This document shows, piece by piece, positions 1 to 24,964 of a stretch of 28,494 nt of DNA. The notes beneath the pieces were generated by a model that was not told the DNA's origin, ran no database searches, and was given only the letters and a program-made list of their open reading frames with translations. The translations under genes and the position numbers were made by a program. This DNA comes from a virus (lineage: Duplodnaviria > Caudoviricetes): IMG/VR virus record IMGVR_UViG_3300025372_000032, positions 1-28,494 of that record; one strand, 5' to 3'. Every line of letters starts with the position of its first letter. Within the stretch, counting starts at the first letter, position 1.

Positions 1-40
1 GGTTTTACCTGCTTGTCAAATATTATTTTGCCAAAATGAA

Positions 41-586
41 TCATTTATTTTGACCGTAGATTGTACCATCTTTATTGATATAACCTTCGAGCAAGCCTGT
101 ATCTTGCCATCGTTTACCAGATTCTTGCATATTGAGAGTAGGATGTTTTTGTTCAATTTCAAAATACTCGTCGTTAAATGCTTTTTCAATTGTATGAAAA
201 TCCACAGGTAAACTTTTTGTTATAGTTCCTGTCATCGTGGGAATTTCTACATCAACCATAGGAGCCCAAACGGCATAAATCTCTACTTTCTTACCAGCAT
301 TAATAGATTTGGTAAAGAAATTCCAAGTACAATATGATCGTTCACTATTGCCTTTTGCCCATCCGTTCAAGTACCAACCAATAGTACCTTGTATACCGCC
401 AGCATCTTGACTGCCACCAATTTTTTCAATTACTCCATCAACAACAACTGCGTATACTCGCCCACGTTTGTCTTTTAGTTGAGAAGTGGACATATTGGCA
501 TCTGGAACGAATGCCAATTTCTTTGTATCGGTTTGGGTTTTAATTTCGCCAACTCGAACCATTTGTGTGATGTGATTGATATCCAT
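41..586 (-). CDS. GIY-YIG superfamily nuclease (R.Hpy188I / T4 endonuclease II-like single domain)
   Basis: GRVYAVVVDGVIEKIGGS resembles the LVY...KIG variant motif of R.Hpy188I as I recall it; KKVEIYA strand; downstream E helix (TIEKAF) and P-x-x-N (HPTLN); AGGAG RBS upstream. Confidence 0.6.
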   Translation of the reverse strand: MDINHITQMVRVGEIKTQTDTKKLAFVPDANMSTSQLKDKRGRVYAVVVDGVIEKIGGSQDAGGIQGTIGWYLNGWAKGNSERSYCTWNFFTKSINAGKKVEIYAVWAPMVDVEIPTMTGTITKSLPVDFHTIEKAFNDEYFEIEQKHPTLNMQESGKRWQDTGLLEGYINKDGTIYGQNK

Positions 587-610
587 AAGTGCTCCTGTCT
601 ATATGTATAT

Positions 611-639
611 ATTATAAATGAAAAAACCAGGCATGTCAA
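611..639 (-). promoter_or_regulatory. sigma70 consensus promoter for the 41..586 nuclease gene
   Basis: TTGACA (639-634), 17-nt spacer, TATAAT (616-611). Confidence 0.8.
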
Positions 640-648
640 CCTGGTTTT
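621..648 (-). terminator. Intrinsic terminator after the AAA ATPase
   Basis: AAAACCAGG/CCTGGTTTT inverted repeat ending in a T-tract on the minus strand; the loop contains the -35 box of the next promoter. Confidence 0.7.
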
Positions 649-670
649 ATCAGTCATTTTACCAAATTAC

Positions 671-1762
671 TCAAAAAGCATCGAAGTAAGAGTAAGACTG
701 CTCTTTGACCTTGCTCAAAACAAGTTGGATACCTTCCGAATTGGCAAAAACAAATTTACCATTTTGGCTATCAATTTTCTTGATATCGCTAGGGTTAAAT
801 TTGATTGAATTCCAGTTCCAATCGATGTCACCGTCCTCGTCTGGTTCGTCGTCATACTTTTTAACATGAAGATGAACTTGACCCTGTAGAGGATTACCTC
901 TCCATTCAATAGTCTCCATGTCAGTCGCCTTGACTTCCTCACCATCCTTAATGACCTTCATAGTGAACTTGTTACCAGAATCGAATTCTGGTTTGACATT
1001 CAACATACGCAGAGCTTCTTCGGGCGGCTCGTCGTAACGGTTCATTTCTTCAACCGTTGCTTTCAACATGTCAAAGTTAAACTGAGCAAACAAGCTGGCA
1101 ATCTGGCACAGCTTCTCAGCATACTTCAACAAAGTTGGCTTCAAATTGTCGTTGCAGTACTCCATGATGAAGTTAGCATCAAGACCTTTGTAATCGATCA
1201 TGTAGAACAAGCGACCAGGACGGTTACGCATGTGTTGGTCAATACGCCACTTGTCATTACAGGTCAAGACAAACAATTTCTTGCTAGGGAATACACCGTC
1301 AAGCAAAGTAAGAGCTTGTTCTTGTTCTTCTGAAGAATAAACTTTTTCAAATTCATCAAACAAGACCATACATGGTTGTTCAATCATTTGCATGAACGCA
1401 TTGAACTTGTCACCAACCCAAGGTGCGTTAATAACAATGCAAGGAACACCTAACCGCTTGGCACCTTCGATAGCCAAATTCTTAGCCAGCAATGACTTTC
1501 CAGAACCTTTTTCACCAGCAAGCATAACGCCTGTTGATGCAGTACGGTCCATAAATGTATTCAAGATACGATCAGTGTTTTTATCAAGGTCGCCATAACG
1601 CTTGCCTTTGATTTCAAACGAATCGATGTGTTCAAGATACAATGGACCATCCATTGGCATTTCTTTAACTACATAATTGCCTGCGGGCAACTTCTCGTGA
1701 AGATCCATAGCTTCTTTGGTTGAAACTCGGAATGTATTGCCTGACTTCAAAAAATATGACAT
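671..1762 (-). CDS. AAA+ family ATPase
   Basis: Walker A GEKGSGKS, Walker B VLFDE, sensor-1 LTCN, arginine finger RPGR. Confidence 0.9.
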   Translation of the reverse strand: MSYFLKSGNTFRVSTKEAMDLHEKLPAGNYVVKEMPMDGPLYLEHIDSFEIKGKRYGDLDKNTDRILNTFMDRTASTGVMLAGEKGSGKSLLAKNLAIEGAKRLGVPCIVINAPWVGDKFNAFMQMIEQPCMVLFDEFEKVYSSEEQEQALTLLDGVFPSKKLFVLTCNDKWRIDQHMRNRPGRLFYMIDYKGLDANFIMEYCNDNLKPTLLKYAEKLCQIASLFAQFNFDMLKATVEEMNRYDEPPEEALRMLNVKPEFDSGNKFTMKVIKDGEEVKATDMETIEWRGNPLQGQVHLHVKKYDDEPDEDGDIDWNWNSIKFNPSDIKKIDSQNGKFVFANSEGIQLVLSKVKEQSYSYFDAF

Positions 1763-1792
1763 TTGATGCTTTTCAAAAAGTTGATTTAAGAT

Positions 1793-1867
1793 TGGTGCGC
1801 TAGGCGGGAATCGAACCCGCGGCTCAGAGGTTTAGAATCTCCTGCTATACCATTTAGCTACTAGCGC
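1793..1867 (-). tRNA. tRNA with CUA anticodon (amber suppressor type), Arg-like body
   Basis: Cloverleaf GCGCTAG/TA/GCTA-AATGGTA-TAGC/A/GGAGA-TTCTAAA-CCTCT/GAGCC/GCGGG-TTCGATT-CCCGC/CTAGCGC/A/CCA; anticodon CTA at 1835-1833; A31-C39 mismatch; CCA encoded. Confidence 0.8.
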
Positions 1868-1875
1868 ATGTGTTT

Positions 1876-1904
1876 ATTATAGCAAATAAAAAAGGGCCTG
1901 TCAA
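1876..1904 (-). promoter_or_regulatory. sigma70 consensus promoter (extended -10) for the tRNA and AAA ATPase
   Basis: TTGACA (1904-1899), 17 nt, TATAAT (1881-1876) preceded by TGn. Confidence 0.85.
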
Positions 1905-1912
1905 GGCCCTTT
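1888..1912 (-). terminator. Intrinsic terminator after the porin gene
   Basis: AAAGGGCC-TTGACA-GGCCCTTTTTT on the minus strand. Confidence 0.75.
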
Positions 1913-1930
1913 GGTTAAGTAGTTTCTATT

Positions 1931-2947
1931 TTAGAAACGTACACGGATGCCTGCACCTAATGTTTGGCCTTGGCTTAGACCAGAAACATTAGTACGTCCA
2001 ACCGTAGCGTAAACATCTGTTTTCTTGCTTAGGTTGTAGTCGTAACCAACTGCATATTCATTGTATGCTGTGATTGTGCCGTTGTCGTAACGTGTGTGAG
2101 CGTACTCAGCCATTACATTACCTGGACCTGCTGGAACCGATGTAGAGACTTGTGTAGTCTTGCCGTCCATATTCAAGTGCTTGTCGCGACCTTCTTGGTA
2201 AGTTGCGAATACTTTAGCAACTTGCAAGTCATAGCTGGCACCAACACCTTTTTCTACAGAGTGGCTGGCCGCATTACCTGTGTAAATATCATTCTGGAAA
2301 CTACCAGAGCTGTTTACTTCAGTTTTTTGCCAGTATGCTGTTAGACCTAGGTTGCCTTTGAAGTACAACACATTAGCGCCGCTGTTGTTACCTGCAAGGC
2401 TTTTTGCATTTTGCAATGTAACCTTTGCACCACCTAGACTTGGTGTTGTGTAAGCAATGCTATTGTCCCATGCTGTATCGTTATACAATTGGGTAGATGG
2501 GTTACCAGTGTTACCAAAGTAAGTGGCGTGCCATAGAGGACCATATGCACCGGAATCACCGTATGCGTTAAATAGGATGGTTGGTAAGAAACTTGGGTTA
2601 GATTGACGACCCAATGTAACGGTACCTAGTTTGTCGTTGCTTAGACCGACAAATGCTGAACGTGCAAATGTGTTAGCAGTAGTGCCGCCTAATGTAGCAC
2701 CATTACCAGCGTTTAAGAAACTGGATAACTCATAAACTGCTTTAGAGCCATTGCCTAAATCTTCAGTGCCTTTAAAACCAATGTAGCTGGTTGTCATACC
2801 GCCGCTGGCAAAATTAGTAGTTGCTGAGGCTGCGCCTGGAGCTTTGGTACTATTATATCCGGCATCCATTGTGCCAAATACACTAGCGTCCGCTTGTGCT
2901 AAACCAACTGATGCTAGTAGAGCGATTGAAAGTAAGAACTTCTTCAT
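1931..2947 (-). CDS. Gram-negative trimeric porin (Porin_4 / Burkholderiales-type)
   Basis: Signal peptide MKKFLLSIALLASVGLAQA; SVFGTMDAG; GFKGTEDLGNG; RSAFVGLS...GTVTLGRQ; GYDYNLSKKT; C-terminal GIRVRF ending in Phe. Confidence 0.92.
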   Translation of the reverse strand: MKKFLLSIALLASVGLAQADASVFGTMDAGYNSTKAPGAASATTNFASGGMTTSYIGFKGTEDLGNGSKAVYELSSFLNAGNGATLGGTTANTFARSAFVGLSNDKLGTVTLGRQSNPSFLPTILFNAYGDSGAYGPLWHATYFGNTGNPSTQLYNDTAWDNSIAYTTPSLGGAKVTLQNAKSLAGNNSGANVLYFKGNLGLTAYWQKTEVNSSGSFQNDIYTGNAASHSVEKGVGASYDLQVAKVFATYQEGRDKHLNMDGKTTQVSTSVPAGPGNVMAEYAHTRYDNGTITAYNEYAVGYDYNLSKKTDVYATVGRTNVSGLSQGQTLGAGIRVRF

Positions 2948-2994
2948 GTAAAATATTTCCTTTAGATTATAAATGACTACAAGGTCATAGTATT

Positions 2995-3024
2995 ATTATA
3001 TATGCCTAAACACAATATAGTCAA
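2995..3024 (-). promoter_or_regulatory. Probable sigma70 promoter for the porin
   Basis: TTGACT (3024-3019), 18 nt, TATAAT (3000-2995). Confidence 0.55.
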
Positions 3025-3051
3025 CAAAAACTGGACATTTTTGCCTAGTTT

Positions 3052-3783
3052 TTACCATTTAACGTCGATGATTGGTCGTTTTTTACGTTCCAACCATGGT
3101 TTAACCGGCCAAGTCTTAGCATAAGGTTGAATGGCTGTCTTTAGTATATCGATCAACACTATGGTTCTAGGTTTCGTACCTGTATGCTTGGTTCCATGCA
3201 ACACCATGCTATCGTCAAAGCCAAATAGCTCACCGTTTACCCATTCGTGTTTCTCCCCTTCTATGTCAAACAAACAACCAGGAGCATCATCTAACACAAG
3301 GTGTAGGCGTAGATAATTATAATCTAGCCCCCAATGGTGATTTAGCAAACTATTTGGTAAACATATATTATATTGTACTGATCCGATAATGTCAAAATTT
3401 TCCATTAGCCAATTTCCAATAGTTGGCATTTTTGCAATCCTATCTTCGCGAAGGCAATATGTAGGACCGCCCTTACGGAAATTAGGCCATGGCGGGATCA
3501 ACACTCCATTTTCATTTGGAAATCCAAGTGTTGCTGCCTCTCTATCATCTAACAAAGAATCTCGTATGAACGTAGGCATACATTTGAATATTCCTTCATA
3601 TACAACATCGTCTTTTTGTTGAAGGTTTGTTATGTGATTTGCTTTTTTCCCAGGGCTTTCAGGGTCTGAAAGATCTTTGATATGTGTAGGTAACCAAGCA
3701 TTAAATTCATCTCTAATTTTTTCCCAATTATTTGTTAATGGATCTAAAATAGGATTTGGATTGAAGTAAATGTATTGACTCAT
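3052..3783 (-). CDS. Aspartyl/asparaginyl beta-hydroxylase family (AspH/LpxO-like) 2OG-Fe(II) oxygenase
   Basis: PNSLLNHHWG...YLRLHL...EKHEWVNGELFGFDDSMVLHGTKHTGTKPRTIVLIDI matches the family pattern H-x-G...LRxH...W...FDDS...H...R. Confidence 0.8.
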   Translation of the reverse strand: MSQYIYFNPNPILDPLTNNWEKIRDEFNAWLPTHIKDLSDPESPGKKANHITNLQQKDDVVYEGIFKCMPTFIRDSLLDDREAATLGFPNENGVLIPPWPNFRKGGPTYCLREDRIAKMPTIGNWLMENFDIIGSVQYNICLPNSLLNHHWGLDYNYLRLHLVLDDAPGCLFDIEGEKHEWVNGELFGFDDSMVLHGTKHTGTKPRTIVLIDILKTAIQPYAKTWPVKPWLERKKRPIIDVKW

Positions 3784-3791
3784 GCTAATAT

Positions 3792-4499
3792 TTATTTTCT
3801 TATATCTGCCAATTTTAAAAATTTAAACAACTTAAACCACATCCAGCCTATGTCAAACTCCCAAGGCTTTCTGCTAAGTTTCGGATTGGCCGGATCAAGG
3901 TGATGATTGTTATGCAACTCTTCGCCGCCGACGATAATACCCCAAGGACTGATGTTATGGCTAGAATCTTTAGTTTCGCCGTTTCGATAACCTGCCCAGT
4001 GTGCGATTCCATTGATAACGCCTGCGGCCCAAAATGGAATCCATAGCATTTGAATACCCCAAACAACGAATCCAATAGGACCAAATATCAACATGTTGAT
4101 GATCAACATAAGTCCAATACCATAAGCGTTATATGGAGTATAGATATTTCGCTCAATCCAATCGTCGGGTGTGCCTACTCCGTATTGCTTAATCATTTCT
4201 TTTTCTTCACTGGCATTATGATATAGGAATGCACCAAAGAACAACACGGTGCATACACCAAACATGTGAGGACTATGAGGATCACCTTGTTGGTCGCTGT
4301 ATCTGTGATGTTTTCGATGTATTGCAACCCATTCTTTTGTAACCATACCTGTTGTTAGCCATAGCCAAAAACGCATAAAATGGCTTAGGATAGGATGGAA
4401 TGTAATTGCTTTGTGCGCTTGACTTCTGTGTAAGAACAGAGTAACGCAAATGATAGTAATATGTGTAACTATCAATGTGTATAATAATATCTCGATCAT
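3792..4499 (-). CDS. Membrane fatty acid desaturase (delta-9, DesA/OLE1-like)
   Basis: Three His boxes HRSQAH, HRKHH, HNNHH; GDPHSP; hydrophobic segments; EFDIGW. Confidence 0.93.
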   Translation of the reverse strand: MIEILLYTLIVTHITIICVTLFLHRSQAHKAITFHPILSHFMRFWLWLTTGMVTKEWVAIHRKHHRYSDQQGDPHSPHMFGVCTVLFFGAFLYHNASEEKEMIKQYGVGTPDDWIERNIYTPYNAYGIGLMLIINMLIFGPIGFVVWGIQMLWIPFWAAGVINGIAHWAGYRNGETKDSSHNISPWGIIVGGEELHNNHHLDPANPKLSRKPWEFDIGWMWFKLFKFLKLADIRK

Positions 4500-4512
4500 A
4501 TATTACTTATGC

Positions 4513-4539
4513 AAGAAAAGGTCTTTGGGACCTTTTCTT
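4513..4539 (-). terminator. Intrinsic terminator, possibly bidirectional
   Basis: Perfect 11-bp inverted repeat AAGAAAAGGTC/GACCTTTTCTT. Confidence 0.75.
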
Positions 4540-4840
4540 ATGCACTGGCACCATGTATTTCATGGTATTTTGCCATTGCTAGTTGTCTAGCTTTAGCTAA
4601 TCTCTCTAATACATAATCAGATAATTCTTCTTCATGTACTAGTTTTCCAAAGTCTTTAGCTTTTCGGTTACGCCCTAATACTAGATCGTCATCTAGTATT
4701 AGAGTGTCGTTCGAATTACTTGGAAGCCGCTGGGCTAGCTGGCTTAACTTCAGCCTTAGTAGCTTCTTTCTTTTCGCTTTTGTTAGGCTTAACGTCTGCC
4801 TTGTGAGGAGCAGGAGTTGCGGTGACTGCTGGTGCAGACT
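4538..4840 (-). CDS. Putative hidden ORF with no upstream ATG/GTG/TTG start, overlapping 4716..4922 in the +1 frame
   Basis: Open frame of 100 codons ending ...LPSNSNDTLILDDDLVLGRNRKAKDFGKLVHEEELSDYVLERLAKARQLAMAKYHEIHGASA*; stop abuts the terminator; true start unknown. Confidence 0.45.
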   Translation of the reverse strand, partial: SLHQQSPQLLLLTRQTLSLTKAKRKKLLRLKLSQLAQRLPSNSNDTLILDDDLVLGRNRKAKDFGKLVHEEELSDYVLERLAKARQLAMAKYHEIHGASA

Positions 4841-4922
4841 TTACTTCTTCTTTTTTAGCAGGTTCTGCGGCAAAGGCAGTTACGGCGACAAGGGTAGCGA
4901 TCAAAGTTGCAATAGTTTTCAT
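4716..4922 (-). CDS. Small secreted Ala/Lys/Pro-rich protein (composition like acid-shock protein Asr)
   Basis: Signal peptide MKTIATLIATLVAVTAFA/AE; low-complexity mature region; AAGGA RBS. Confidence 0.75.
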   Translation of the reverse strand: MKTIATLIATLVAVTAFAAEPAKKEEVKSAPAVTATPAPHKADVKPNKSEKKEATKAEVKPASPAASK

Positions 4923-4968
4923 TTCAAAGTTTCCTTTTGGTTAGTACACAACATTATTGCTGTGTATA

Positions 4969-5003
4969 TATATAACGCGGTAGCTCTGAACTTAGTTGAC
5001 AAG
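4969..5003 (-). promoter_or_regulatory. Putative ECF-sigma-type promoter, copy 1
   Basis: CTTGTCAAC-N16-GCGTTATATA; same motif and spacing at 14600..14634. Confidence 0.5.
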
Positions 5004-5017
5004 ATTTGGAGAAATAA

Positions 5018-5566
5018 TCACGCATTGGGATTAAATGTAAGAATATTCGGAGTCATTCGTAAACTCATCAACACTCTTGGCAAATTACTATCATTCCTTA
5101 CATCGTGTGGAATGTGAACATATACCAAAGTTGGTTCTTTAATACAATACGATTCTAACAGAACAGGTTTAGCGTTCCATGTAAGTTTTTCAGAAATGTA
5201 TCCCCCGGGTCTGTGGTATGTTTCCTGCGTGTAGTCTCCGGTATACCATAACATTTCAGAATTTTCAACATTGCAAATTGGAATGTTTAATGCCCAATTT
5301 CCTTCTGTTGGCCAACGTGGATCATTGTAGTCAACGTGTATTCCCCTGCTTTTTCCGGGAGCCACGAAAAAGTTGATACAGGACTGAATCTTATGATCCT
5401 TTCCAGAAAATGCTTTTAATGAAGGATTTACTATTGACTCTATCCATTCCCAATCTTCTTTTGGAACTAACTTTGAGTGTAGTGTAAATCCGTCTTGTAC
5501 CCAACTTGAATATTTTAAGGCAATCTGTTCCCAGCCTTCAATTTTAATAGGTTTGCTATATTTCAT
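5018..5566 (-). CDS. Cupin / 2OG-Fe(II) oxygenase-like protein
   Basis: GIHVD...ALNIPI...PHDV...R...S.R (HxD...H triad). Confidence 0.65.
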   Translation of the reverse strand: MKYSKPIKIEGWEQIALKYSSWVQDGFTLHSKLVPKEDWEWIESIVNPSLKAFSGKDHKIQSCINFFVAPGKSRGIHVDYNDPRWPTEGNWALNIPICNVENSEMLWYTGDYTQETYHRPGGYISEKLTWNAKPVLLESYCIKEPTLVYVHIPHDVRNDSNLPRVLMSLRMTPNILTFNPNA

Positions 5567-5569
5567 GAA

Positions 5570-6223
5570 TTATTTAATCTCTTTAGGTTGTCTAACAAAA
5601 GGTTTTGCTAATAGCTCATCTCTTAGAACGTAAGGCTTGCCCGGTTCTAATCCCAAATAACTGCGTTTAATATCTATTAGAAAAATCAATCGCCTGTTTG
5701 GTGTATGGTTGTGAGCACTATGTACCTTTTGATTATTAAATCCAAAAGGTTTATCCCATGTAACTTCTTCTCCGTTGACTTCTAAGAAAATATCCCCTGG
5801 CGGAACAATTAGGGGCAGATGTATTCTTAGGTATTCGCCAGTACGGTTCTCAATACCGGTGTGCCTAAGTATAGACGAGTTAGGTTCGAGTATGCTGTAT
5901 AAAACGATTCCTAAATTATCCCCAAATTCTTCTATAATTTTAGCGGCAGTAGGGAAATTATCTCCAAAATCTTTATAACGTTCTAGTGTTTTTCCGTCTG
6001 GTGTATATCTGTACAACAAGGGTTGGCTTTTCCAAGCATTTTTTTTACTTTTGAGATAATCAAAATTTCTACCACCGGGTCTAACATCAATTACCTTAGA
6101 CATGCTTTCTTGATCGAAATCTGTATGATACGCTAAGAAGTCTTTAATCAAGTTATCTTTGAATGTCATCAAATACTCAGTTATTGGTAATTCTTCAGCT
6201 GTATAGATATTCTTTTCAGTCAT
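5570..6223 (-). CDS. Aspartyl/asparaginyl beta-hydroxylase family oxygenase
   Basis: YSILEPNSSILRHTG...YLRIHLPLIVP...W...HSAHNHTPNRRLIFLIDI; close paralogue of 18805..19512. Confidence 0.85.
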   Translation of the reverse strand: MTEKNIYTAEELPITEYLMTFKDNLIKDFLAYHTDFDQESMSKVIDVRPGGRNFDYLKSKKNAWKSQPLLYRYTPDGKTLERYKDFGDNFPTAAKIIEEFGDNLGIVLYSILEPNSSILRHTGIENRTGEYLRIHLPLIVPPGDIFLEVNGEEVTWDKPFGFNNQKVHSAHNHTPNRRLIFLIDIKRSYLGLEPGKPYVLRDELLAKPFVRQPKEIK

Positions 6224-6253
6224 GAAAATATTTATTTTTAGGTAACGGTGGTC

Positions 6254-6277
6254 AAAAAGAAACCCGCCGAAGCGGGT
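6254..6277 (-). terminator. Intrinsic terminator after tmRNA
   Basis: ACCCGC-TTCG-GCGGGT-TTCTTTTT. Confidence 0.9.
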
Positions 6278-6281
6278 CCTT

Positions 6282-6555
6282 GTTATTTTCTGTTACAAGG
6301 CATAACTGCCTCGCTATTAGGCGTTTGCGGCTAATAGGAATGTATCGTCGTTTGCGATTACTTTTTTTGCTTCTACGACCGGGTTACCCCAATCCTAACG
6401 GGTTCTGCTTTCCCGAGCTGTCCACTTCAATACTCTTTGCCCTGTCGAAACCATTTTCATCCCCACCTAAATATACCTCAATACACTTAGGTGGAGATGG
6501 CGAGATTCGAACTCGCGTCCAGAACACTTTTCTCTTTGCTTCATACAGCAATAAC
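6282..6555 (-). ncRNA. ssrA: Circularly permuted (two-piece) tmRNA, tag ANDDTFLLAANA
   Basis: Order on minus strand: T-arm GCGAG-TTCGAAT-CTCGC and acceptor 3' strand CATCTCC-A-CC (to ~6490); intervening hairpin; GGGGATG...GGTTTCGAC 5' end at 6464 giving G3-U70; tag frame 6355-6320 then TAA TAG; outer ends approximate. Confidence 0.92.
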
Positions 6556-6559
6556 TTCA

Positions 6560-6588
6560 ATTGTACAATATTTATCGTACAATGTCAA
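6560..6588 (-). promoter_or_regulatory. sigma70 promoter for tmRNA, with a TAAATA inside the spacer
   Basis: TTGACA (6588-6583), 17 nt, TACAAT (6565-6560); predicted +1 near 6554. Confidence 0.75.
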
Positions 6589-7898
6589 CCTACTAATTGA
6601 GAAACTTCTGGAAGTACTGCTCTCCAATTTGTATTCCTTGACTTATCGAGGTAGTCCATAAATTTAATAAACTCTTGCAAGGCATTTGGGTCAATTTCTG
6701 TTTCAAGGTTATTTTTTAGATGTGCTACGATCAATTTTGATTTAAGACTAACATTAACAAAGGATCTGTAATACTCTAGCAATTTTAATTTTAAATCCCT
6801 GGGCAAGTGATTTACAGAAAAATGTATAGGACCTTCTAAAAACCTAATATGAAAAGGAATACCTAATCGTCTACAGAATTCCTCACTCTTAATTATATCA
6901 TAAGCTGTCAAGGTTTGAAAACACGAAGTTATAGAATCAAATACAACATTAGGATTTCTTAAGGTATGTTTTTTTAAAGTTTTTACATTTTCTACAAACT
7001 TTTCCCACTTTCCGCCGAACCTTATTAGTTCATATTGATCCCTAGTAGCATCCATGCTTACTCTAACTATAACACTTTTAAAGTTAGACCACTGATCTAT
7101 AATTTTGTTATTAAGGGCAGATAGATTTGTATCATACTCTAGTACAACGTTTTTAGAATAACCACTTGTTGATAATTTTTCCAGCATCTCGAAATGTGCA
7201 GGAGTTACCATAGGTTCACCGCCGGTGATGTAGATATGTCGAAGCCCTGGCATCAGCTGGTTAAACTTTTCCCACCAGATGGGATTTTCATACCAATACA
7301 TTTCAGGTGGAGACATCCACTTGTCTGTTTTTATATTTTTTACAAGTTTTATTTCATTCATCAATCCAAATGAATTGGTATTGTAATATTCAGTGTACTC
7401 ATCGTACCATAGGTTGCTAAAATGCGGGCCGCACATTATACATTTTTGATTACATAAGTTACCAAAGCGTATATCTAAACTACTAGGTAACCAATCAACC
7501 GAACCGTCGTCTGCAATCTTGTTGGTGTAATCTTCTTCAGTAACATGTTCAGAATTGATTAACGTCATCAATCTCACTCTACGACTTGTGTTAACATGAT
7601 TACGATTGTAGTCTGTTATTATTTCTCTATTCTCACAACATTCGCAATGAGGACTCCATTGATCAGGAGACTTTACATTTAATCTTCTAACTTCTCTATG
7701 CTTATCGCTGTTTATAATGTCACGTAAATCGTGTGTTAAGATGTGCATTAGATTGCCGTCTCTGTCTCGACAACGTTGCATATCTAACTCATCAACGCTA
7801 TTTGTACCTAATGAACATAGTCGTATATATCCGTCGGGTAATATGTGTAACCCATCCCATACGGTTTTACAAAATGTATTACGAGGAGGTACACTCAT
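6585..7898 (-). CDS. Radical SAM protein with N-terminal SPASM/twitch-like Cys domain
   Basis: CNQKCIMC (CxxxCxxC), ITGGEP, YDTN, VSMDA; N-terminal C...PDG...LC...CECC. Confidence 0.9.
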   Translation of the reverse strand: MSVPPRNTFCKTVWDGLHILPDGYIRLCSLGTNSVDELDMQRCRDRDGNLMHILTHDLRDIINSDKHREVRRLNVKSPDQWSPHCECCENREIITDYNRNHVNTSRRVRLMTLINSEHVTEEDYTNKIADDGSVDWLPSSLDIRFGNLCNQKCIMCGPHFSNLWYDEYTEYYNTNSFGLMNEIKLVKNIKTDKWMSPPEMYWYENPIWWEKFNQLMPGLRHIYITGGEPMVTPAHFEMLEKLSTSGYSKNVVLEYDTNLSALNNKIIDQWSNFKSVIVRVSMDATRDQYELIRFGGKWEKFVENVKTLKKHTLRNPNVVFDSITSCFQTLTAYDIIKSEEFCRRLGIPFHIRFLEGPIHFSVNHLPRDLKLKLLEYYRSFVNVSLKSKLIVAHLKNNLETEIDPNALQEFIKFMDYLDKSRNTNWRAVLPEVSQLVG

Positions 7899-8440
7899 TT
7901 ATTATTTTGTCTTAATGCATCTTTAATTCTATCAAATGGTGTTCCTACCCATTGCCATGTAATGAATCTTCTAACACCACTATTGGGACTATTGACACTA
8001 TGAATTTTAGAAACGTCTAACAAATATAAATCATTTTGTTGTGCAGTAAATTCTGCAACCTTTTCTACCTGATCTAAAGAATATATGTTGGCTTCTTTTT
8101 TCCCAGGATGGTTAAATCCGTATGCGTTTTCTTTTTTCTTATAAAAGTAAGTAGTAGAATTATTAGTTTCTAAATAATAATTTGCACAGGCACTGATATT
8201 ATGATCGATATGTGGTAGTAAATGACCTTCGCCATGTATCTCTGCTAATTGAACTTGTAGAGGCGGGATACCAGAAAACATTTCTTTCGGTAGTAAACTA
8301 TTAAAGTACGCAAGATCTTTTAATCTATAGTATGTAAGAACGGGCTTAGGAGCTCTTCCATATACAACAACCACAGGCCCTTTAAGTCTTTCAAAATCTA
8401 CATTGTTGTCGTCTAATAAAAAATCAATTTTTTGAAACAT
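7895..8440 (-). CDS. Cupin / 2OG-Fe(II) oxygenase-like protein
   Basis: LLPHID...ANYY...LLDVSKIHSV...R. Confidence 0.65.
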   Translation of the reverse strand: MFQKIDFLLDDNNVDFERLKGPVVVVYGRAPKPVLTYYRLKDLAYFNSLLPKEMFSGIPPLQVQLAEIHGEGHLLPHIDHNISACANYYLETNNSTTYFYKKKENAYGFNHPGKKEANIYSLDQVEKVAEFTAQQNDLYLLDVSKIHSVNSPNSGVRRFITWQWVGTPFDRIKDALRQNNK

Positions 8441-9032
8441 CTATATCTGTTCTTTCGATTAAAAAATCTCTGTCTTTCATCCACTCGGTTATATCTTTCC
8501 AATACATTCTTTCTATCATTCCTGCCCTTGCAGAAATACACCATCTAGCCTGATTATTCATTATAACCGTATGGGGAATTCCCACTCTAACCATAGTTAA
8601 CTTATTTTCAGCAAGAATATGTCTATCAATTTCTTCTAATGTATTGATGGGCCAATTATAATAAATTGTGCCTGCACCTCCTGGAGTAGGGGCACGATTT
8701 TGAATAAGAGGAGTCTTATACCAAGTCATGGGGGCATCTTGACCTCCTACTACCATGTTAAGACCGAAGGTAGAAATTTTAATAGGATGATTTCTATGAA
8801 TGTCTAAATGTGCATTATGTGTATTGTGGCCCGGCTCTCTATAAAAGACTATTGATTCTGTTATTACCAATCCTCTTTTAGCTAAGTCTTGTATCCATTC
8901 TTTGCTAAAGATTTCAAATGCTTTAAAAGACCAGACACCAAATTCTTTACCTTCTACATCTGGATATTTCCACTCAGGATTAATTGCATTATCGCAAGGA
9001 ATGTTTAGTTCGTACCAACATGGTTCTTTCAT
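8424..9032 (-). CDS. Cupin / 2OG-Fe(II) oxygenase-like protein
   Basis: AHLD...GLNMV...VRVGIPHTV...RWCISAR; tandem paralogue of 9034..9612. Confidence 0.65.
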   Translation of the reverse strand: MKEPCWYELNIPCDNAINPEWKYPDVEGKEFGVWSFKAFEIFSKEWIQDLAKRGLVITESIVFYREPGHNTHNAHLDIHRNHPIKISTFGLNMVVGGQDAPMTWYKTPLIQNRAPTPGGAGTIYYNWPINTLEEIDRHILAENKLTMVRVGIPHTVIMNNQARWCISARAGMIERMYWKDITEWMKDRDFLIERTDIDVSKN

Positions 9033-9033
9033 A

Positions 9034-9612
9034 TTATCTTTCCACTAATAAATTTTTTGAACGGAACAAATTAGCAACTTCGTCCCAAGGAATATCTTCA
9101 CTTATATGAGTTCTTGCAGAAATACACCATCTTGGATCTGACCCCATTGTAATAGCATGTGGAAGATTTGTTCTAACCAACGTTACCTGATCCTGGATTC
9201 TGCAGGATTCTATGTATTTTATTTCATCAAATTTATAGGTTAGGTATGGAGAACTAGAATCAACATCTTTAAATACTCCTTCTTCTGTAGGAAGTGTATA
9301 CCAATGCATACTGCTTTCCTTTCCTCCTACTACCCAATTGATTGCAAAGTTAACTTTTTTAAGATCTTTTATATGCGTATCAACGTGAGCTACTTTAGAA
9401 GTAGTAAATGGCGCTCTATAAAATACAAGAGCATGTTTTATATTAAGTCCTAAATTTGAAACATAGTTTAACCACTCAGGAGTAAACATAGTAGTTGATT
9501 CAACTGACCATATACCATAATCTCCAGTAGGGGTAGGAAAACTCCATTCAGGATTTAATGAATTAGCCGTTTCAATTTTTAATCTATAATAGCATATTTC
9601 ATTCACGGACAT
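9034..9612 (-). CDS. Cupin / 2OG-Fe(II) oxygenase-like protein
   Basis: AHVD...AINWV...VRTNLPHAI...RWCISAR. Confidence 0.65.
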   Translation of the reverse strand: MSVNEICYYRLKIETANSLNPEWSFPTPTGDYGIWSVESTTMFTPEWLNYVSNLGLNIKHALVFYRAPFTTSKVAHVDTHIKDLKKVNFAINWVVGGKESSMHWYTLPTEEGVFKDVDSSSPYLTYKFDEIKYIESCRIQDQVTLVRTNLPHAITMGSDPRWCISARTHISEDIPWDEVANLFRSKNLLVER

Positions 9613-10237
9613 ATCCTAGTTCGATCATCTTGTCTCGGCATTGTGTGTAAGGCCATTTTTGTATAGGATGAAAATTCCAACCAAACGCTATACGAGTTTT
9701 GTCAGATGTATTTCTAACACCATGCCATTCGTGTACATTTGTTAAGTATGCATTATCATAGATTGCATATTTGTATATAGGTTGTGGATGTACTGATTGA
9801 CTTTGTCTATTAGGACTATCTATTTTAGGTAGTTCATAGTACTCGGAATAACATTCTGGACTACACCCCTCGATAGGAATATAGATAGCCTGTGCTCTCC
9901 ATGATCTATCGATATGCGGATGCATAGTTGCTCCTGGAGGTAATTTGGTAATAACTGCATCTTTTGCCATAAAAGGTAGCATAGGTTCAAAGTGTTGTTT
10001 CCATAAAGGATCATCGGCACACTCGGGTACAGAGAACCCATAATTTTTATGGTTTATATCCTTGCCTTTTGTTGGTTCCCATTTTTCATTTGGCCACCAT
10101 AATGCAACGGTTGCTGTTCCATCATAAGTATCTGGCATGTGAGGTGCAAACCATTTATAATAAAGTTGCCTAAATGCATCTAATTGTTCTTCTGTAAAAC
10201 AGCATTTTGCATATAAATCTCGTGCTGGTAAAGTCAT
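9599..10237 (-). CDS. 2OG-Fe(II) oxygenase-like protein
   Basis: LPPGATMHPHID...IYIPI...WHGVRNTSDKTRIAF. Confidence 0.7.
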   Translation of the reverse strand: MTLPARDLYAKCCFTEEQLDAFRQLYYKWFAPHMPDTYDGTATVALWWPNEKWEPTKGKDINHKNYGFSVPECADDPLWKQHFEPMLPFMAKDAVITKLPPGATMHPHIDRSWRAQAIYIPIEGCSPECYSEYYELPKIDSPNRQSQSVHPQPIYKYAIYDNAYLTNVHEWHGVRNTSDKTRIAFGWNFHPIQKWPYTQCRDKMIELGYVRE

Positions 10238-10692
10238 ACTAACATTTTTCCTACAATAACATCTTCGTCTGCGTATCCCATACGATGTAAAATTGGCCTA
10301 AAGTCAGGTTCTCCTTTAACATGCCAGGTAATCTTATGTGCGTACTTACGCATTTCTTGCTCAGAATATTTAATTAATTTAATTCCGGTCATGCCCGCAC
10401 GTTGGTCCTTGCGTAAGAATAACACATCGTTAGATGCAACAATAGTTTCTTTATAATGAATATGTGGTTTAACAAACCAGGCACTATAACCTAACAAAGA
10501 TCCGTCTTCGCTGTCCCGTGCAGTAAGTAGATAGAAATTATTTGTTTTTTCCATCTTATCATATAGCTCCCAATCAGGGGCAAGTTTAATTTTATCTTTG
10601 TGCAATGTTAATTCTTCATAATGATCAATTAGCATTGGTTCCATTTCTGGTTTAACCATTAGCACTGGTTCGCAATTAAATATTAACGCCAT
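10234..10692 (-). CDS. GNAT-family acetyltransferase-like protein
   Basis: LLGYSAWFV...DVLFLRKDQRAGMTGIKLIKYSE (motif A-like)...RMGY; start moved to MALIF behind an AGAGGA RBS. Confidence 0.7.
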   Translation of the reverse strand: MALIFNCEPVLMVKPEMEPMLIDHYEELTLHKDKIKLAPDWELYDKMEKTNNFYLLTARDSEDGSLLGYSAWFVKPHIHYKETIVASNDVLFLRKDQRAGMTGIKLIKYSEQEMRKYAHKITWHVKGEPDFRPILHRMGYADEDVIVGKMLV

Positions 10693-11638
10693 AATATCCT
10701 CTATTCCAATGTATATCAATCCACACAGCTTTGTTTTTAAATCTGTCTTCGTCCGTCCTATAGTGTCTCCAGGAAGGCATTTTTATTTTTTCTTTGGTGT
10801 AAAAATCGTCTTTAGTAAATGTATATAATTGATCTTTTAGTGGTTGTTTGAATTTTCTAAAATCATAACCTTCCCACTTTATTTCTGCCGGAGTTGATAC
10901 AGCATAGTTATTCCAATCTGGTCCCATGCCAAAGTGAAAAAGGTTATGCCCTAGAACCATGCGCTTTACTTCTAAAAGCCACATCAGTTCTTCGCTTTGA
11001 TAATTTAACGTATAATCCAGCCACCAAAATAAATCTTTAACATTTTCAAGTTTCCTAGGACATGCATTGACTGATTTCATGTACATATCTTTAGAATACG
11101 CATTTAATGGTTTTAAAAATCGATCAATAGATTCTTCTAACTTTTCCCGGGGCATGGCAGAATAATTGTTAGAACCGAAAACAGGATCTAACAAGTGACC
11201 AGTAACTACAATTCCATCTAAAATTGCTTTTCTTAATGGATCGTCATTGTAGAAATTCATTTCAGTTGTTGCTAGTTTATCTTCTATGTATTTTTTATAA
11301 AAATCCGGATACTCTTGTTTGCTATGATTATCCATCATTACAACTAATTGATCTGCAGGAGCATATTTTAACATCTCAGATAACACTAGCGTAGAGTCAA
11401 TGCCACCACTCCATGTGACATATATTTTTCTAGAACCTGCTTTGGCTATAATGTTAGTAGCACTATTATAACACAATTCATCTATAGACTTAGGTGTATC
11501 AACTAGCTCGCCAATTGGTGTTATACACTCGATTTGAGGAATATCAATCATTGATCGAGATCTGTCAAAGACATTATACATATGAGTAGGAGCAACCATC
11601 ATAGGTGTGTATCCCGCATGGTGGTAGAATTTTCTCAT
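10676..11638 (-). CDS. Adenine-nucleotide alpha-hydrolase / asparagine-synthetase-like PP-loop ATPase domain protein
   Basis: IYVTWSGGIDST PP-loop; IVVTGHLLDPVFG (cf. TGxGxDxxFG); no glutaminase domain. Confidence 0.75.
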   Translation of the reverse strand: MRKFYHHAGYTPMMVAPTHMYNVFDRSRSMIDIPQIECITPIGELVDTPKSIDELCYNSATNIIAKAGSRKIYVTWSGGIDSTLVLSEMLKYAPADQLVVMMDNHSKQEYPDFYKKYIEDKLATTEMNFYNDDPLRKAILDGIVVTGHLLDPVFGSNNYSAMPREKLEESIDRFLKPLNAYSKDMYMKSVNACPRKLENVKDLFWWLDYTLNYQSEELMWLLEVKRMVLGHNLFHFGMGPDWNNYAVSTPAEIKWEGYDFRKFKQPLKDQLYTFTKDDFYTKEKIKMPSWRHYRTDEDRFKNKAVWIDIHWNRGYYGVNI

Positions 11639-11639
11639 A

Positions 11640-11840
11640 TTAAAAGTATATCCCTAACTTTGCTAAATTTTCTTTTATTTTTTCTGGAGATTGTAAAGGG
11701 ACTTCTTGAACCACAAGTTGTGGCGGACGCCATGCTGGGTACACTAAGATTATATTGTATGTCTCAATAGCTTCTGCACCGACATGCAAATTATATCTTT
11801 TATCTTCTTCTTCTAGATCAAGTAGTTGCTGATTTATCAT
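11640..11840 (-). CDS. Small hypothetical protein
   Basis: Fills the gap within the operon; ATG start at MINQQ inferred. Confidence 0.6.
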   Translation of the reverse strand: MINQQLLDLEEEDKRYNLHVGAEAIETYNIILVYPAWRPPQLVVQEVPLQSPEKIKENLAKLGIYF

Positions 11841-12573
11841 TTTTACCAATTAAATTTATTAAAATTGCACCAAGGTCAAAATAATAAAATTTGGTACCCC
11901 AGTCCATTAGTTTGGGTTTATTGTGATGTTCTTTGTGTAACCATTCACCCCCCATTGGTATTATAAACTCTAAAAGCCACAGATTCCTAGCGGCGTTTTG
12001 CCGATCATCATTTTCTTCTAATTTACCGTGTGCAAAAATTGTATGTAACCCGCTGGTAACTAGATATGTAGATGTAGGTAATGCCCATAAAAATAAAAAG
12101 GCATTGTAATTTATAGCAAGCAAAATAATAGCAACACCTAGTGCAATTGTTAAAGAATGGTTTAAGAACAATGTATGCATAGGATCACGCATCATTCTTA
12201 ATTCATTTTTAGTGGCAATTACACCTTCTCTTTCTTTGAATCTTAGAAAGTGTTTGATGTTAGGATCGTATGTATCTTTTTCAGTATCACTAAATTTATG
12301 ATGATTGATGTGTACACTACTCCAATGAACTGGCGCCGCATTGAGAGTTGCACATCCTACTAGACCAAAAAACCAATGCCAGAATTTAGAACAAACAAAT
12401 GCGTTATGTGTAAACAAACGATGATATCCTACCGTAACGGTAAGTGCAATAGTGATATAAATCAAAAACGATGGTATCAGCCATAAAGGATTTGCATCGG
12501 CAATATATGCCAAGTATGCAATCGGAAATAACATCCAAGCTCCTAATGATCTTTGCCAAACGTATGTCTTCAT
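11818..12573 (-). CDS. Membrane fatty acid desaturase family protein (divergent)
   Basis: His boxes HRLFTH, HINHH, HKEHH; GE motif; hydrophobic helices; start at MKTY by ATGA overlap. Confidence 0.88.
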   Translation of the reverse strand: MKTYVWQRSLGAWMLFPIAYLAYIADANPLWLIPSFLIYITIALTVTVGYHRLFTHNAFVCSKFWHWFFGLVGCATLNAAPVHWSSVHINHHKFSDTEKDTYDPNIKHFLRFKEREGVIATKNELRMMRDPMHTLFLNHSLTIALGVAIILLAINYNAFLFLWALPTSTYLVTSGLHTIFAHGKLEENDDRQNAARNLWLLEFIIPMGGEWLHKEHHNKPKLMDWGTKFYYFDLGAILINLIGKNDKSATT

Positions 12574-13073
12574 AGAAATTTTACTCCATAGCAATCATCC
12601 GAAGCCAGTGGCTTTGCTGTTGCATCTCCTGTTCTTATTCTTATCTGTGTTGGACCCGTAAATGTTTTACCGTTAACAACTAAATTTCCACGAACTAAAA
12701 AGATATTGCTGTTGTTGGGTATAATAGTTTCTTCACCTGCTTTAAATATTGCACTTTCTAGAGTAGGCAATCCGTCTTTATTATATTGATGAGGAATACA
12801 TAACCATTCTGTAGCAACTGGGAAATTTAATTGTAAGTTACCGCCTGAACTCGCATTTGCACCAGTATGTTCTGAATTTAACCAACCGGGTGTTCGATCA
12901 TCTAATTGTTCGCCAGTTTCTAATACGTGGACTTTGGCTACACCGTCAGTATAGAAATACCAGCCTGTTTTTACTAGACCATTTTCGGCAATAGGAACCA
13001 CGCGACTATCGCCTGCGTTTGTCTGTGCAAGAATAACAATTTTTCCAAATGCTGCAAACGGAGTAAATTTCAT
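12570..13073 (-). CDS. Hypothetical protein, possible cupin-like beta fold
   Basis: Beta-strand-rich pattern (FLVRGNLVVNGKTFTGP); ATGA-coupled on both sides. Confidence 0.55.
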   Translation of the reverse strand: MKFTPFAAFGKIVILAQTNAGDSRVVPIAENGLVKTGWYFYTDGVAKVHVLETGEQLDDRTPGWLNSEHTGANASSGGNLQLNFPVATEWLCIPHQYNKDGLPTLESAIFKAGEETIIPNNSNIFLVRGNLVVNGKTFTGPTQIRIRTGDATAKPLASDDCYGVKFL

Positions 13074-15383: not shown

Positions 15384-15412
15384 AGTATAACAGCGTTATT
15401 TGATTTTGTCAA
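15384..15412 (-). promoter_or_regulatory. sigma70 promoter
   Basis: TTGACA (15412-15407), 17 nt, TATACT (15389-15384). Confidence 0.75.
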
Positions 15413-17707: not shown

Positions 17708-18808
17708 TCATAGATCTGGTAATTCATCGTAACTAACATTATCACTCATAACGCCAATGACATAGTTAGTACTTTCATTTTCTTGAAGTGCTGTTTGTTT
17801 CTTATTAATATTCACATGTTTATTAAACCATGGAATTGGGCTAGACTTAGGATGCTCTTCAAGATATTTAATTCCTACTTCTTTTAATTTAGTAAATGCT
17901 GTGTAGTCAACAAAGTCTTTTAGGATACTGGCATTTAAACCAATAACAACACCTTTCTTAAATAGGTATTCTGCCCATTCTTTTTCCTCACGAATAACAT
18001 CCATGTACAATTGATAAACTTCATCTTTGCACTCTTCTGCGATTGGAGTAAAGTCAGGATCATCTTTAATTACATTATTAATTAACCAGGCAGTCCATTC
18101 ACTATGTAAAATTTCATCTTGTAGGATTAGGCTAATGATGTTACCGTTACCAATATAGATTTTGTTTTCGACCATTGCTAGACTAGTAGCAAATGATACC
18201 ATAAAGCGTAGTGCTTCTAATGCGTAACTGGCATGTAGTGCCATCCAAATTGCTCGCTTGTGAGTATACAGGTCAATTTGCTCACCTAGTTCTTTACGGC
18301 TGTTAAGGATATGAAGGTCTTCATAATATCGCCCAACGCTAGCAGCCATGCCAGCAATTTCAGTTGTATCGTGGATCTTGTTAAATTCATCTTTAGGAAC
18401 ACCGTATACGTTTCTAATGATATGACTATATGATTTACTATGGATACTGGTCTCAAAGAAACTCCAAGTTAGTGTTAACGCTTCGAGTTCAGGTATTGAC
18501 GATACTGGCCCAAACACTTGGAAAGGAGCCCGACCCTGAATGCTATCCAGAGCAGTCTGGCGAAGTAGATTAGAAGTAAAAATATGCTTAACCGCATCGC
18601 TGGCCTCCTTATGATCCATTTTGTCTTTAGTAAGACTGATTTCTTCTGGAACCCAAAAGAATCCACGAGCCAGTTCCTCGTACTTTTGCAGTTTAGGATA
18701 TTTGACTTCTTCGAAACGTTGTACCGTTACAGGACCTTCTGGATCCAGAAACATTTTACGTTTAAGGTAGTTTGTTTGTTTACTAAAATTGTATTGTTCT
18801 TTGCTCAT
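17708..18808 (-). CDS. nrdB: Ribonucleotide reductase class Ia beta subunit
   Basis: FFWVPEE; LDSIQG; ETSIHSKSY (radical Tyr); LEALRF; DEILH; ALQENE..NY. Confidence 0.97.
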   Translation of the reverse strand: MSKEQYNFSKQTNYLKRKMFLDPEGPVTVQRFEEVKYPKLQKYEELARGFFWVPEEISLTKDKMDHKEASDAVKHIFTSNLLRQTALDSIQGRAPFQVFGPVSSIPELEALTLTWSFFETSIHSKSYSHIIRNVYGVPKDEFNKIHDTTEIAGMAASVGRYYEDLHILNSRKELGEQIDLYTHKRAIWMALHASYALEALRFMVSFATSLAMVENKIYIGNGNIISLILQDEILHSEWTAWLINNVIKDDPDFTPIAEECKDEVYQLYMDVIREEKEWAEYLFKKGVVIGLNASILKDFVDYTAFTKLKEVGIKYLEEHPKSSPIPWFNKHVNINKKQTALQENESTNYVIGVMSDNVSYDELPDL

Positions 18809-19512
18809 ATTAAATTTCTCATAAATGGTCTTGGGACATATCTAGGATTATATGGCTCCCCAGGTTCAATGCCTGCCCTTACTCTATCGATATCAATTAA
18901 AAAAATCATTCGCCACTCGTTAGATAAATTGTGAGCGCTGTGTTGTAATTGATTGTTAAATCCAAAAAGATCGTCCCAAGTAACTTCTTCTCCGTCTACT
19001 TCTAAAAAAACATCACCCTTTGGAATTATCAAAGGAATGTGAATCCTTAAAAATCTACCACTCCTATTTTCTATACCAGTGTGTCTAAATATCGAAGTGT
19101 TAGGAGCAAGTATACTATAATTCATTATAGGACAATCGTCTCCATACTCTTCCATTAATTTAAACGCTGTGGGAAATTTTCCTGCATACGGATCGTCTGG
19201 AGACATAACTTTGTTTATATCATGCTTTCGATCTTTTAAAGTATACTTAAATGAAAATCCTCTCCACGATTCTTTGTTAGGTCTATAGTAATTTTTACCT
19301 TCTACTTTAGACTGCACCATATTTTCGTAATGGCTTTCTTCAATCTGGTGATCAGGGCGATTCATTGTTGCTCCACCTAGTTCTTTTGCAGCCGCTTCTA
19401 ATGAATCCCAACCATCCATAAACTCTGACAACAAATCATCTTTGATTGACATCAGTTTATCCCCGATAGGAATTTCTTCTCTTTTCCAAATACCTTTGTA
19501 CTTAGGAATCAT
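18805..19512 (-). CDS. Aspartyl/asparaginyl beta-hydroxylase family oxygenase
   Basis: YSILAPNTSIFRHTG...LRIHIPLIIP...HSAHNLSNEWRMIFLIDI. Confidence 0.85.
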   Translation of the reverse strand: MIPKYKGIWKREEIPIGDKLMSIKDDLLSEFMDGWDSLEAAAKELGGATMNRPDHQIEESHYENMVQSKVEGKNYYRPNKESWRGFSFKYTLKDRKHDINKVMSPDDPYAGKFPTAFKLMEEYGDDCPIMNYSILAPNTSIFRHTGIENRSGRFLRIHIPLIIPKGDVFLEVDGEEVTWDDLFGFNNQLQHSAHNLSNEWRMIFLIDIDRVRAGIEPGEPYNPRYVPRPFMRNLI

Positions 19513-24935: not shown

Positions 24936-24964
24936 ATTATAACTACCTATATCGATAATGTCAA
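24936..24964 (-). promoter_or_regulatory. sigma70 consensus promoter, probably producing a leaderless exonuclease mRNA
   Basis: TTGACA (24964-24959), 17 nt, TATAAT (24941-24936); ATG 7 nt downstream; no SD sequence. Confidence 0.75.

Follow-up and report, generated by a model that had tools for sequence, protein, structure and literature searches.

A family of CUA-anticodon tRNAs in freshwater jumbo phages as candidate accessory amber suppressors alongside the standard genetic code

Introduction

Amber suppressors made in the laboratory from the tRNAs of phage T4 or E. coli have an elongator body, the anticodon CUA with A37 and A38, and are charged by host synthetases. When a stop-reading tRNA is found in a phage, it is usually taken as the flag of an alternative genetic code. 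In the preprint by Borges et al., suppressor tRNAs are described for recoded gut phages whose replication genes follow the standard code and whose late genes are enabled by the suppressor tRNA. A standard-code relative that acquired a suppressor is also reported there, and the proposed model proceeds from stop-codon depletion through suppressor acquisition to recoding. For megaphage G, a tRNA-Sup(UUA) is listed among the translation genes, and no recoding is claimed in that passage. A genome paper on cluster C mycobacteriophages gives 34 tRNAs and one tmRNA; among the cluster C records, a tRNA(cta) is annotated as tRNA-Pyl or tRNA-OTHER. In phage Yucca (KX721255.1, Bixzunavirus, cluster C) this tRNA(cta) is located in a large tRNA array and adjoins the gene for peptidyl-tRNA hydrolase. 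The presence of an amber-suppressor tRNA in a standard-code phage is already known from cluster C and from relatives of the recoded phages, and the family described here is an addition to these cases.

We analysed a tRNA gene with the anticodon CUA in a 28,494-nt stretch of phage DNA (IMG/VR record IMGVR_UViG_3300025372_000032), hereafter referred to as the window, for which a preliminary description had been made from the sequence alone. When the phage collection was searched with this tRNA, 98 records matched a part of it, and 95 of these were Mycobacterium phages. As in cluster C, where the tRNA set is nearly complete, the CUA tRNA is here carried by a large, tRNA-rich and tmRNA-bearing myovirus. 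The host phylum and the phage lineage are, however, unrelated, and the sequences resemble each other (82% over 50 nt) in no more than the anticodon arm and the T arm, a likeness that falls short of showing homology. Moreover, the tRNA(cta) of cluster C stands inside the array, whereas the present gene stands apart from the array, behind a promoter or between protein genes. With the TAG-recoded phages (crAss-like, Lak and others) and their standard-code relatives the window shares a phage-borne CUA tRNA, an AT-rich genome and few TAG stops. By contrast, the carriers of the present tRNA keep TAG as a stop, and the sampled fragments yielded neither an in-frame TAG nor a rise in coding density, nor any module of release factor or synthetase; they are phages of freshwater and of likely Burkholderiales, not of gut Bacteroidetes or Firmicutes. 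Megaphage G has in common with the window a stop-reading tRNA in a very large phage, but its tRNA reads UAA instead of UAG, and both phage and host are unrelated. The laboratory amber suppressors are single-step mutants of sense tRNAs, whereas the present tRNA belongs to a natural lineage of which every known member has CUA. No published report of the freshwater-phage CUA tRNA family was found in literature searches, and the word "suppressor" does not occur in Morgado and Vicente (2019).

Results

Structure of the tRNA gene

By ARAGORN, a single tRNA was detected in the whole window, on the minus strand and with the anticodon cta (Table 1). The same segment matched Rfam RF00005 (E 9.1e-13) with 67.0 bits, where the gathering score is 29. 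The CUA cloverleaf with encoded CCA that had been claimed in the preliminary description was thus confirmed. In the Rfam alignment, the anticodon loop is UUCUAAA of 7 nt, with CUA at positions 34-36 and with U33 and A37 present. The gene also has a 5-nt variable loop, G18G19, the GTTCGA T loop and A73, and the 3' CCA is encoded. Position 20, as read from the D loop AAUGGUA, is U, in agreement with the earlier statement that the Arg determinant A20 is absent. One non-standard pair was recognized by Rfam, A31.C39 in the anticodon stem next to the loop, and this stem, which also includes a G.U pair, is weak. The minimum-energy fold of the window copy is not a cloverleaf (z = -2.42); for the relatives described below, the minimum-energy fold is a cloverleaf in L002 and L009, and in L071 the anticodon helix is shifted.

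The label tRNA-Pyl that was given by ARAGORN derives solely from the anticodon. A tRNA-Pyl is compact, with a short D loop devoid of G18G19, a 3-nt variable loop and an anticodon stem of 6 bp. This identity was ruled out for the window tRNA by G18G19, the GTTCGA T loop, the 5-nt variable loop and the 5-position anticodon stem. By these features, the gene encodes a tRNA of ordinary elongator build and of the amber-suppressor type.

Contigs from four other public runs (X3 to X6, all freshwater metagenomes) span the tRNA gene, and zero differing letters are listed. A normal Arg loop, which had been considered as a possible finding in reads or orthologues, was seen neither in these runs nor in the relatives, five of five of which have CUA. 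With identical letters in the four runs and with five CUA relatives, the tRNA can be dismissed neither as an error nor as an isolated mutant.

Table 1. Positions of the features in the window
Feature	Position	Strand	Evidence or detail
Endonuclease gene	41-586		
AAA-ATPase gene, 363 aa	671..1762	(-)	PHROG 2376, E 1.4e-85; Pfam AAA, E 1.1e-10
Spacer of 30 nt from tRNA CCA to ATPase ATG, rest of the ATPase 5' UTR	1763..1792	(-)	sequence
tRNA gene, anticodon CUA	1793..1867	(-)	ARAGORN; Rfam; family alignment A2; four other runs
Sigma70-type promoter, TTGACA-17-TATAAT	1904..1876	(-)	12/12 consensus matches; extended -10 TG
Terminator-like hairpin after porin gene	1912..1891	(-)	9 pairs, 5 G-C, then TTTATTT
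Porin_4 Gram-negative porin gene, upstream, TAA stop before hairpin	1931..2947	(-)	Pfam PF13609, E 2.7e-39
Six near-consensus promoters	611-639, 1876-1904, 3367-3395, 6560-6588, 15384-15412, 24936-24964	(-)	promoter scan
Permuted two-piece tmRNA, betaproteobacterial type	6226-6602	(-)	near-consensus promoter 6588..6560
Host-like envelope/lipid genes: the Porin_4 porin, three of the Asp/Asn beta-hydroxylase family, two of the fatty-acid-desaturase family	1931-2947, 3052-3783, 3792-4499, 5570-6223, 11818-12594, 18805-19512	(-)	Pfam

The CUA tRNA family

The IMG/VR collection was scanned with a pattern of the 3' two-thirds of the window tRNA, in which the anticodon was left open as NNN. Five stretches matched, and all five were found to be CUA tRNAs (L002, L009, L071, L072 and L074). 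Including the window copy, the family consists of six members in contigs of related freshwater jumbo phages. In the alignment of the six (A2), 95.2% of the pair cells are standard, compared with 86.5% in shuffles, and 8 of the 21 pairs are altered on both sides, a level of compensatory change that none of 500 shuffles reached. When the 3' partners were slid along the alignment, pairing decreased to 36-39%. The anticodon loop YUCUAAA is invariant among the six except for position 32, CUA and U33 being present in every member, and the A31.C39 mismatch was found in five. Position 20 is U in the window and L002, C in L071, L072 and L074, and A in L009. The compensatory changes in the stems and the invariant CUA in six diverged copies argue that this tRNA lineage is under selection both for its shape and for its anticodon.

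Two more sequences were observed beside these six. In run X3, one contig agrees with the tRNA over the 5' half (window 1827-1868), the anticodon region included, and its T arm, the 3' strand of its acceptor stem and its upstream context are all different; this is likely to be a further member of the CUA family. With a relaxed pattern of the 3' half, a metagenome locus of 529 nt (L171) was found that carries a 79-nt CUA tRNA; its body is like that of bacterial tRNA-Arg, A31 pairs with U39, and the 529-nt context cannot separate phage from cell.

Amino-acid identity of the tRNA

The CUA tRNAs were compared with 132 tRNAs of the phages themselves. They were nearest to each other (72-74% identity), and no donor isoacceptor stood out among the 132. 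For the window tRNA, the nearest neighbours over the whole length have the anticodons CAU, UCU, GAA and CUU (75-80% identity). The relaxed 3'-half pattern matched about 1,800 stretches in metagenomes, and among the 120 matches listed, 99 are tRNA-Arg and the others are 8 Lys, 6 Phe, 3 Leu, 3 Met and one CUA. The acceptor stem of the clade's own tRNA-Arg(UCU) differs from that of the CUA tRNA. In E. coli the identity elements for Arg are A20 and C35, and C35 is absent from the CUA family, all six members having U35. The resemblance of the body to tRNA-Arg(UCU), noted at the outset, has some support from the 3' half, which is mostly Arg-like among the listed matches; over the whole length the neighbours are mixed, and A20 and C35 are lacking in the window copy. 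In E. coli, Lys or Gln is commonly attached to CUA suppressors of this type, which makes these two residues candidates for the present tRNA.

The tRNA arrays of three related contigs also contain CAA tRNAs of 77-78 nt, which are Leu by anticodon (G003 151608, G002 64464 and G004 91667). These have a variable region of 5 nt and not the long arm expected of bacterial tRNA-Leu.

Promoter and position of the tRNA gene

The -10 hexamer of the promoter listed in Table 1 ends 8 nt upstream of the tRNA 5' end, and its -35 hexamer is located within the loop of the terminator-like hairpin. No terminator was found in the spacer between the tRNA and the ATPase gene. Among the relatives of the ATPase gene, TATAAT or TACAAT was detected 30-42 nt before the ATPase start in 31 of the 36 that could be assessed, all of them without a tRNA at that place, and a full -35/-10 pair was present in 23 of the 36, mostly embedded in a hairpin followed by a T run. 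In the window the tRNA is flanked by 8 nt on the side of the -10 hexamer and by 30 nt on the side of the ATG. The sum of 38 nt equals the normal -10-to-ATG distance in the relatives, which argues that the tRNA is a clean insert of 75 nt in the ATPase 5' UTR, at the expected transcription start. The "own consensus sigma70 promoter" of the preliminary description is a full consensus promoter as stated (12/12), but it is not private to the tRNA, because it belongs to an ATPase cassette that is also found in relatives without the tRNA.

In four of the six family members (window, L071, L072 and L074), 8-9 nt separate the end of a -10 hexamer from the tRNA 5' end. In the other two, L002 and L009, the tRNA is located inside operons and has no promoter; a stop codon precedes it by 10-11 nt, and the next ATG follows after 14-16 nt.

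In the window as a whole, six near-consensus sigma70 promoters were detected, all on the minus (coding) strand, where 0.43 would be expected by chance. At two of them, 639..611 and 1904..1876, the -35 hexamer was observed inside a terminator-like hairpin. Mobile cassettes of promoter and stem-loop have been described for T4-type phages, and the window cassette resembles those. From this arrangement we infer that the ATPase gene may be co-transcribed with the tRNA, and early expression of the tRNA from the consensus host-type promoter is plausible.

Distribution of the tRNA gene

Relatives of the window AAA-ATPase were found in IMG/VR at 37 loci (55-90% identity). At two of these 37, L002 and L009, a CUA tRNA was detected by ARAGORN, and the tRNA is placed at a different site in each carrier. 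On the ATPase tree, the four carriers with both genes (window, L002, L009 and G008) are scattered among non-carriers. The window and L002 fall into a well-supported clade of 13 rows, 11 of which are without the tRNA, several of these 11 with full 10-kb flanks; L009 and G008 are located elsewhere. In runs X3 and X5, contigs were found that match the ATPase start and then diverge from the window tRNA, leaving loose ends at 1763/1764, and these contigs are, in our reading, tRNA-less variants in the same waters. Endonuclease genes are located close to the tRNA in the window, in G006 and in G007. The insertion into the UTR, the varied sites, the scattered carriers, the tRNA-less variants and the nearby endonucleases altogether argue for an accessory and mobile nature of the CUA tRNA gene, and its patchy distribution implies that the gene is dispensable.

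Stop-codon usage in the window and its relatives

The list of minus-strand open reading frames of the window (n=41) gave 21 TGA, 20 TAA and no TAG. With the addition of the 68-aa ORF at 4716-4922, which ends with TAA, the total for 42 genes is 21 TAA, 21 TGA and 0 TAG, and the count in the preliminary description was exact. For the comparison of contigs, genes were called not by Prodigal but by a simple ORF caller of our own (pooled codon model, greedy choice), which gave 0/40 TAG stops for the window. In the five other carriers together, TAG ends 33 of 409 genes (8.1%; G001 9/103, G002 9/99, G006 10/118, G007 3/47 and G008 2/42), and in the three contigs for which no CUA tRNA was found it ends 26 of 871 (3.0%; G003 2/208, G004 8/273 and G009 16/390). 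If TAG stops occurred at the frequency of 26/871, 0/42 would have a probability of 0.28; with the pooled frequency this probability is 0.14, and with that of the carriers (33/409) it is 0.03. The missing TAG stops of the window are not clearly above chance within the clade.

The TAG-terminated genes in the carriers are real. Homologues in other contigs were found for 17 of them, for instance the exonuclease and a desaturase-like gene, and the orthologues, those of the window included, are terminated after the same residue by TAA or TGA. Since conserved carrier genes end in TAG, an efficient suppressor would extend them. TAG stops are commoner in carriers than in non-carriers (Fisher P = 1.5e-4), a comparison of few lineages and of unequal genome regions; in the homology-supported subset the TAG stops are 17/219 for carriers and 6/403 for the others. 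The proposed coupling between the tRNA and TAG-free genes thus fails, because TAG is rare throughout the clade, including the contigs without the tRNA, and the carriers themselves have TAG-ended genes. For the idea that read-through would be directed at the host "while sparing phage genes", the opposite pattern was observed, as the carriers end more of their genes in TAG.

Test of an altered genetic code

Coding density was highest under code 11 in all nine contigs tested with our ORF caller, and reading of TAG as sense lowered it everywhere, from 0.925 to 0.910 in the window and from 0.891 to 0.836 in G001. The standard code also applies to a relative of 357.6 kb, rated as 100% complete, in which no CUA tRNA was found. 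For the in-frame TAG screen, every called gene was prolonged in frame past TAG, and the product was matched to the proteins called in all other contigs and loci. No TAG position was spanned by a homologue across 8 contigs (about 312 kb from carriers, mostly early and metabolic regions). This result, together with the decrease in density, speaks against the gating of TAG-interrupted genes that had been suggested, within the 312 kb of carrier sequence.

A screen over all stop-to-stop frames gave 233 positions, which were mostly shadow frames of conserved DNA and were discarded. One candidate for read-through was rejected: the G001 gene at 35670-36113, which ends with TAG, is followed by an in-frame ORF of 455 aa, but an ATG belonging to this ORF lies three codons further, no fused homologue was found, and it was taken as an adjacent gene.

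Six genes of the window and the carriers that have PHROG labels for virion-structural or tail proteins form uninterrupted frames under code 11. The carrier contigs represent mainly early and metabolic regions, and the genes for capsid, portal, terminase and lysis are outside the sampled parts. No gene with an RF-1 domain was found in five carriers, and no synthetase of the PF00749 (Glu/Gln) or PF00152 (Lys/Asp/Asn) type was found in three carriers and two large relatives, all of these being fragments. Helpers of a code change, such as release factor 2 and a matching synthetase, are optional in the known recoded cases. As far as it has been sampled, the phage uses the standard genetic code.

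The phage and its host

The window encodes ribonucleotide reductase subunits, an exonuclease, a thioredoxin-like protein, a porin, a radical SAM enzyme and a two-piece tmRNA, together with three Asp/Asn hydroxylase-like and two desaturase-like proteins. The clade consists of freshwater phages with genomes of roughly 350 kb, and the related contigs carry 27-43 tRNAs, many with a tmRNA in addition. These contigs are fragments; by CheckV, 71.7 kb was rated as 20% complete and a single relative, of 357.6 kb, as 100%. Among the listed homologues of the porin, those with a named taxon are Burkholderiales, at not more than 42% identity, some records being named to phylum or class only, and the window tmRNA fits the betaproteobacterial model of Rfam. 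The taxa of the porin homologues and the tmRNA type point to a betaproteobacterial host, likely one of the Burkholderiales.

The predicted tag of the window tmRNA is ANDDTFLLAANA, with ANA as its last three residues where LAA would be usual, and UAA UAG comes directly after it; the tags in the relatives end with LAA, MAA or QAA. In the 216-nt gap at 4500-4715 on the minus strand, a coding-like frame of about 60 codons was observed that has no ATG, GTG or TTG start and ends at a terminator-like hairpin near 4516-4543. By megablast of the window region 1-12000 against the phage collection, no match was obtained. Distant blastn matches of 68-86 nt at 4741-4858, to segments annotated as tRNA-Leu or tmRNA in Stenotrophomonas phages, were taken as chance; this segment is within the low-complexity 68-aa ORF and gave no match to an RNA family.

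Discussion

We consider it probable, with a likelihood of roughly 60%, that the window tRNA, as one of six in a conserved CUA-only family, is an accessory amber suppressor of a phage whose code is otherwise standard. The tRNA would be transcribed early by the host RNA polymerase as the near-leaderless head of the ATPase transcript, trimmed by host enzymes, and charged by whichever host synthetase accepts or makes use of U35. The charged tRNA would then compete with release factor 1 at UAG, leading to partial read-through at UAG stops of both the host and the phage. As to the payoff, and following the logic of Borges et al., we think it more probable that nonsense alleles of the amber (TAG) kind are buffered in this large, AT-rich genome than that the host is shut off.

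A different role would be that of a code switch in a partly TAG-recoded phage, in which the early genes are standard and the late structural and lysis genes contain sense TAGs. The gut-phage pattern described by Borges et al., with standard-code replication genes and suppressor-enabled late genes, provides a precedent for such a switch. It would also agree with the absence of TAG from the 42 stops of the window, and the contigs of the carriers are mostly early or metabolic, so that 75-90% of each genome, with the core late genes, is located outside them. We nevertheless regard this role as quite unlikely, because TAG is a true stop in the 33 carrier genes, read-through of TAG lowers the density in all carriers, no homologue spans an in-frame TAG in the 8 contigs, and those structural-type genes that are present in carriers are open under code 11. 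The RF-1-domain gene was likewise not found in the five carriers. Occurrence at just two of the 37 ATPase loci, scattered on the tree, is unlike that of an essential decoder, and the complete 357.6-kb relative is a standard-code phage in which the CUA tRNA was not detected. Similarly doubtful is a stop-to-sense takeover caught midway, in which a mobile promoter-suppressor cassette that moves among standard-code relatives is combined with late genes of the carriers that already have sense TAGs or TAG-gated read-through forms; if true, it would account for the higher share of TAG-terminated genes in the carriers (8.1% versus 3.0%). The early stage of recoding that had been considered in the preliminary description corresponds to the published model of Borges et al., and may or may not apply to the present phage.

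The remaining alternatives leave the tRNA without a role in reading UAG. As a tRNA-shaped RNA, it might serve as a decoy, for example for a host anticodon nuclease or some other defence that binds tRNAs, or it might mark the head of a transcript for processing. Its position at the extreme 5' end of a strongly promoted transcript in four of the six members would fit such a job, as would the conserved A31.C39 mismatch, which is odd for a decoder, the lack of a UAG target in the contigs screened, and the tRNA-repair-type genes of the clade, such as RNA ligase. This is, however, rather unlikely in our judgement: the full elongator set is kept (G18G19, the GTTCGA T loop, U33, A37, A73 and CCA), the CUA is strictly kept while the stems vary, which is most simply explained by codon reading, and the tRNAs of L002 and L009 are promoterless and stand within operons. 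The tRNA could also be a neutral or decaying passenger, spread by recombination of promoter cassettes or by the nearby homing endonucleases and now functionless. The patchy distribution, the different site in every carrier, the endonuclease genes beside the tRNA in three of the contigs and the tRNA-less variants in the same samples are all compatible with a passenger, but six diverged copies that keep both the cloverleaf, with 8 double-sided pair changes, and the anticodon loop do not look like decay, and we take this explanation to be very unlikely.

The accessory amber suppressor thus remains our preferred reading of the CUA tRNA, and it carries a caution: the combination of a suppressor tRNA with a local absence of TAG stops is insufficient for calling a phage recoded. 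The freshwater clade would represent, after cluster C, a second and unrelated group of tRNA-rich, tmRNA-bearing large phages with a CUA tRNA. A cultured or completed carrier would offer a clean system in which to learn what an amber suppressor buys a virus that uses the standard code.
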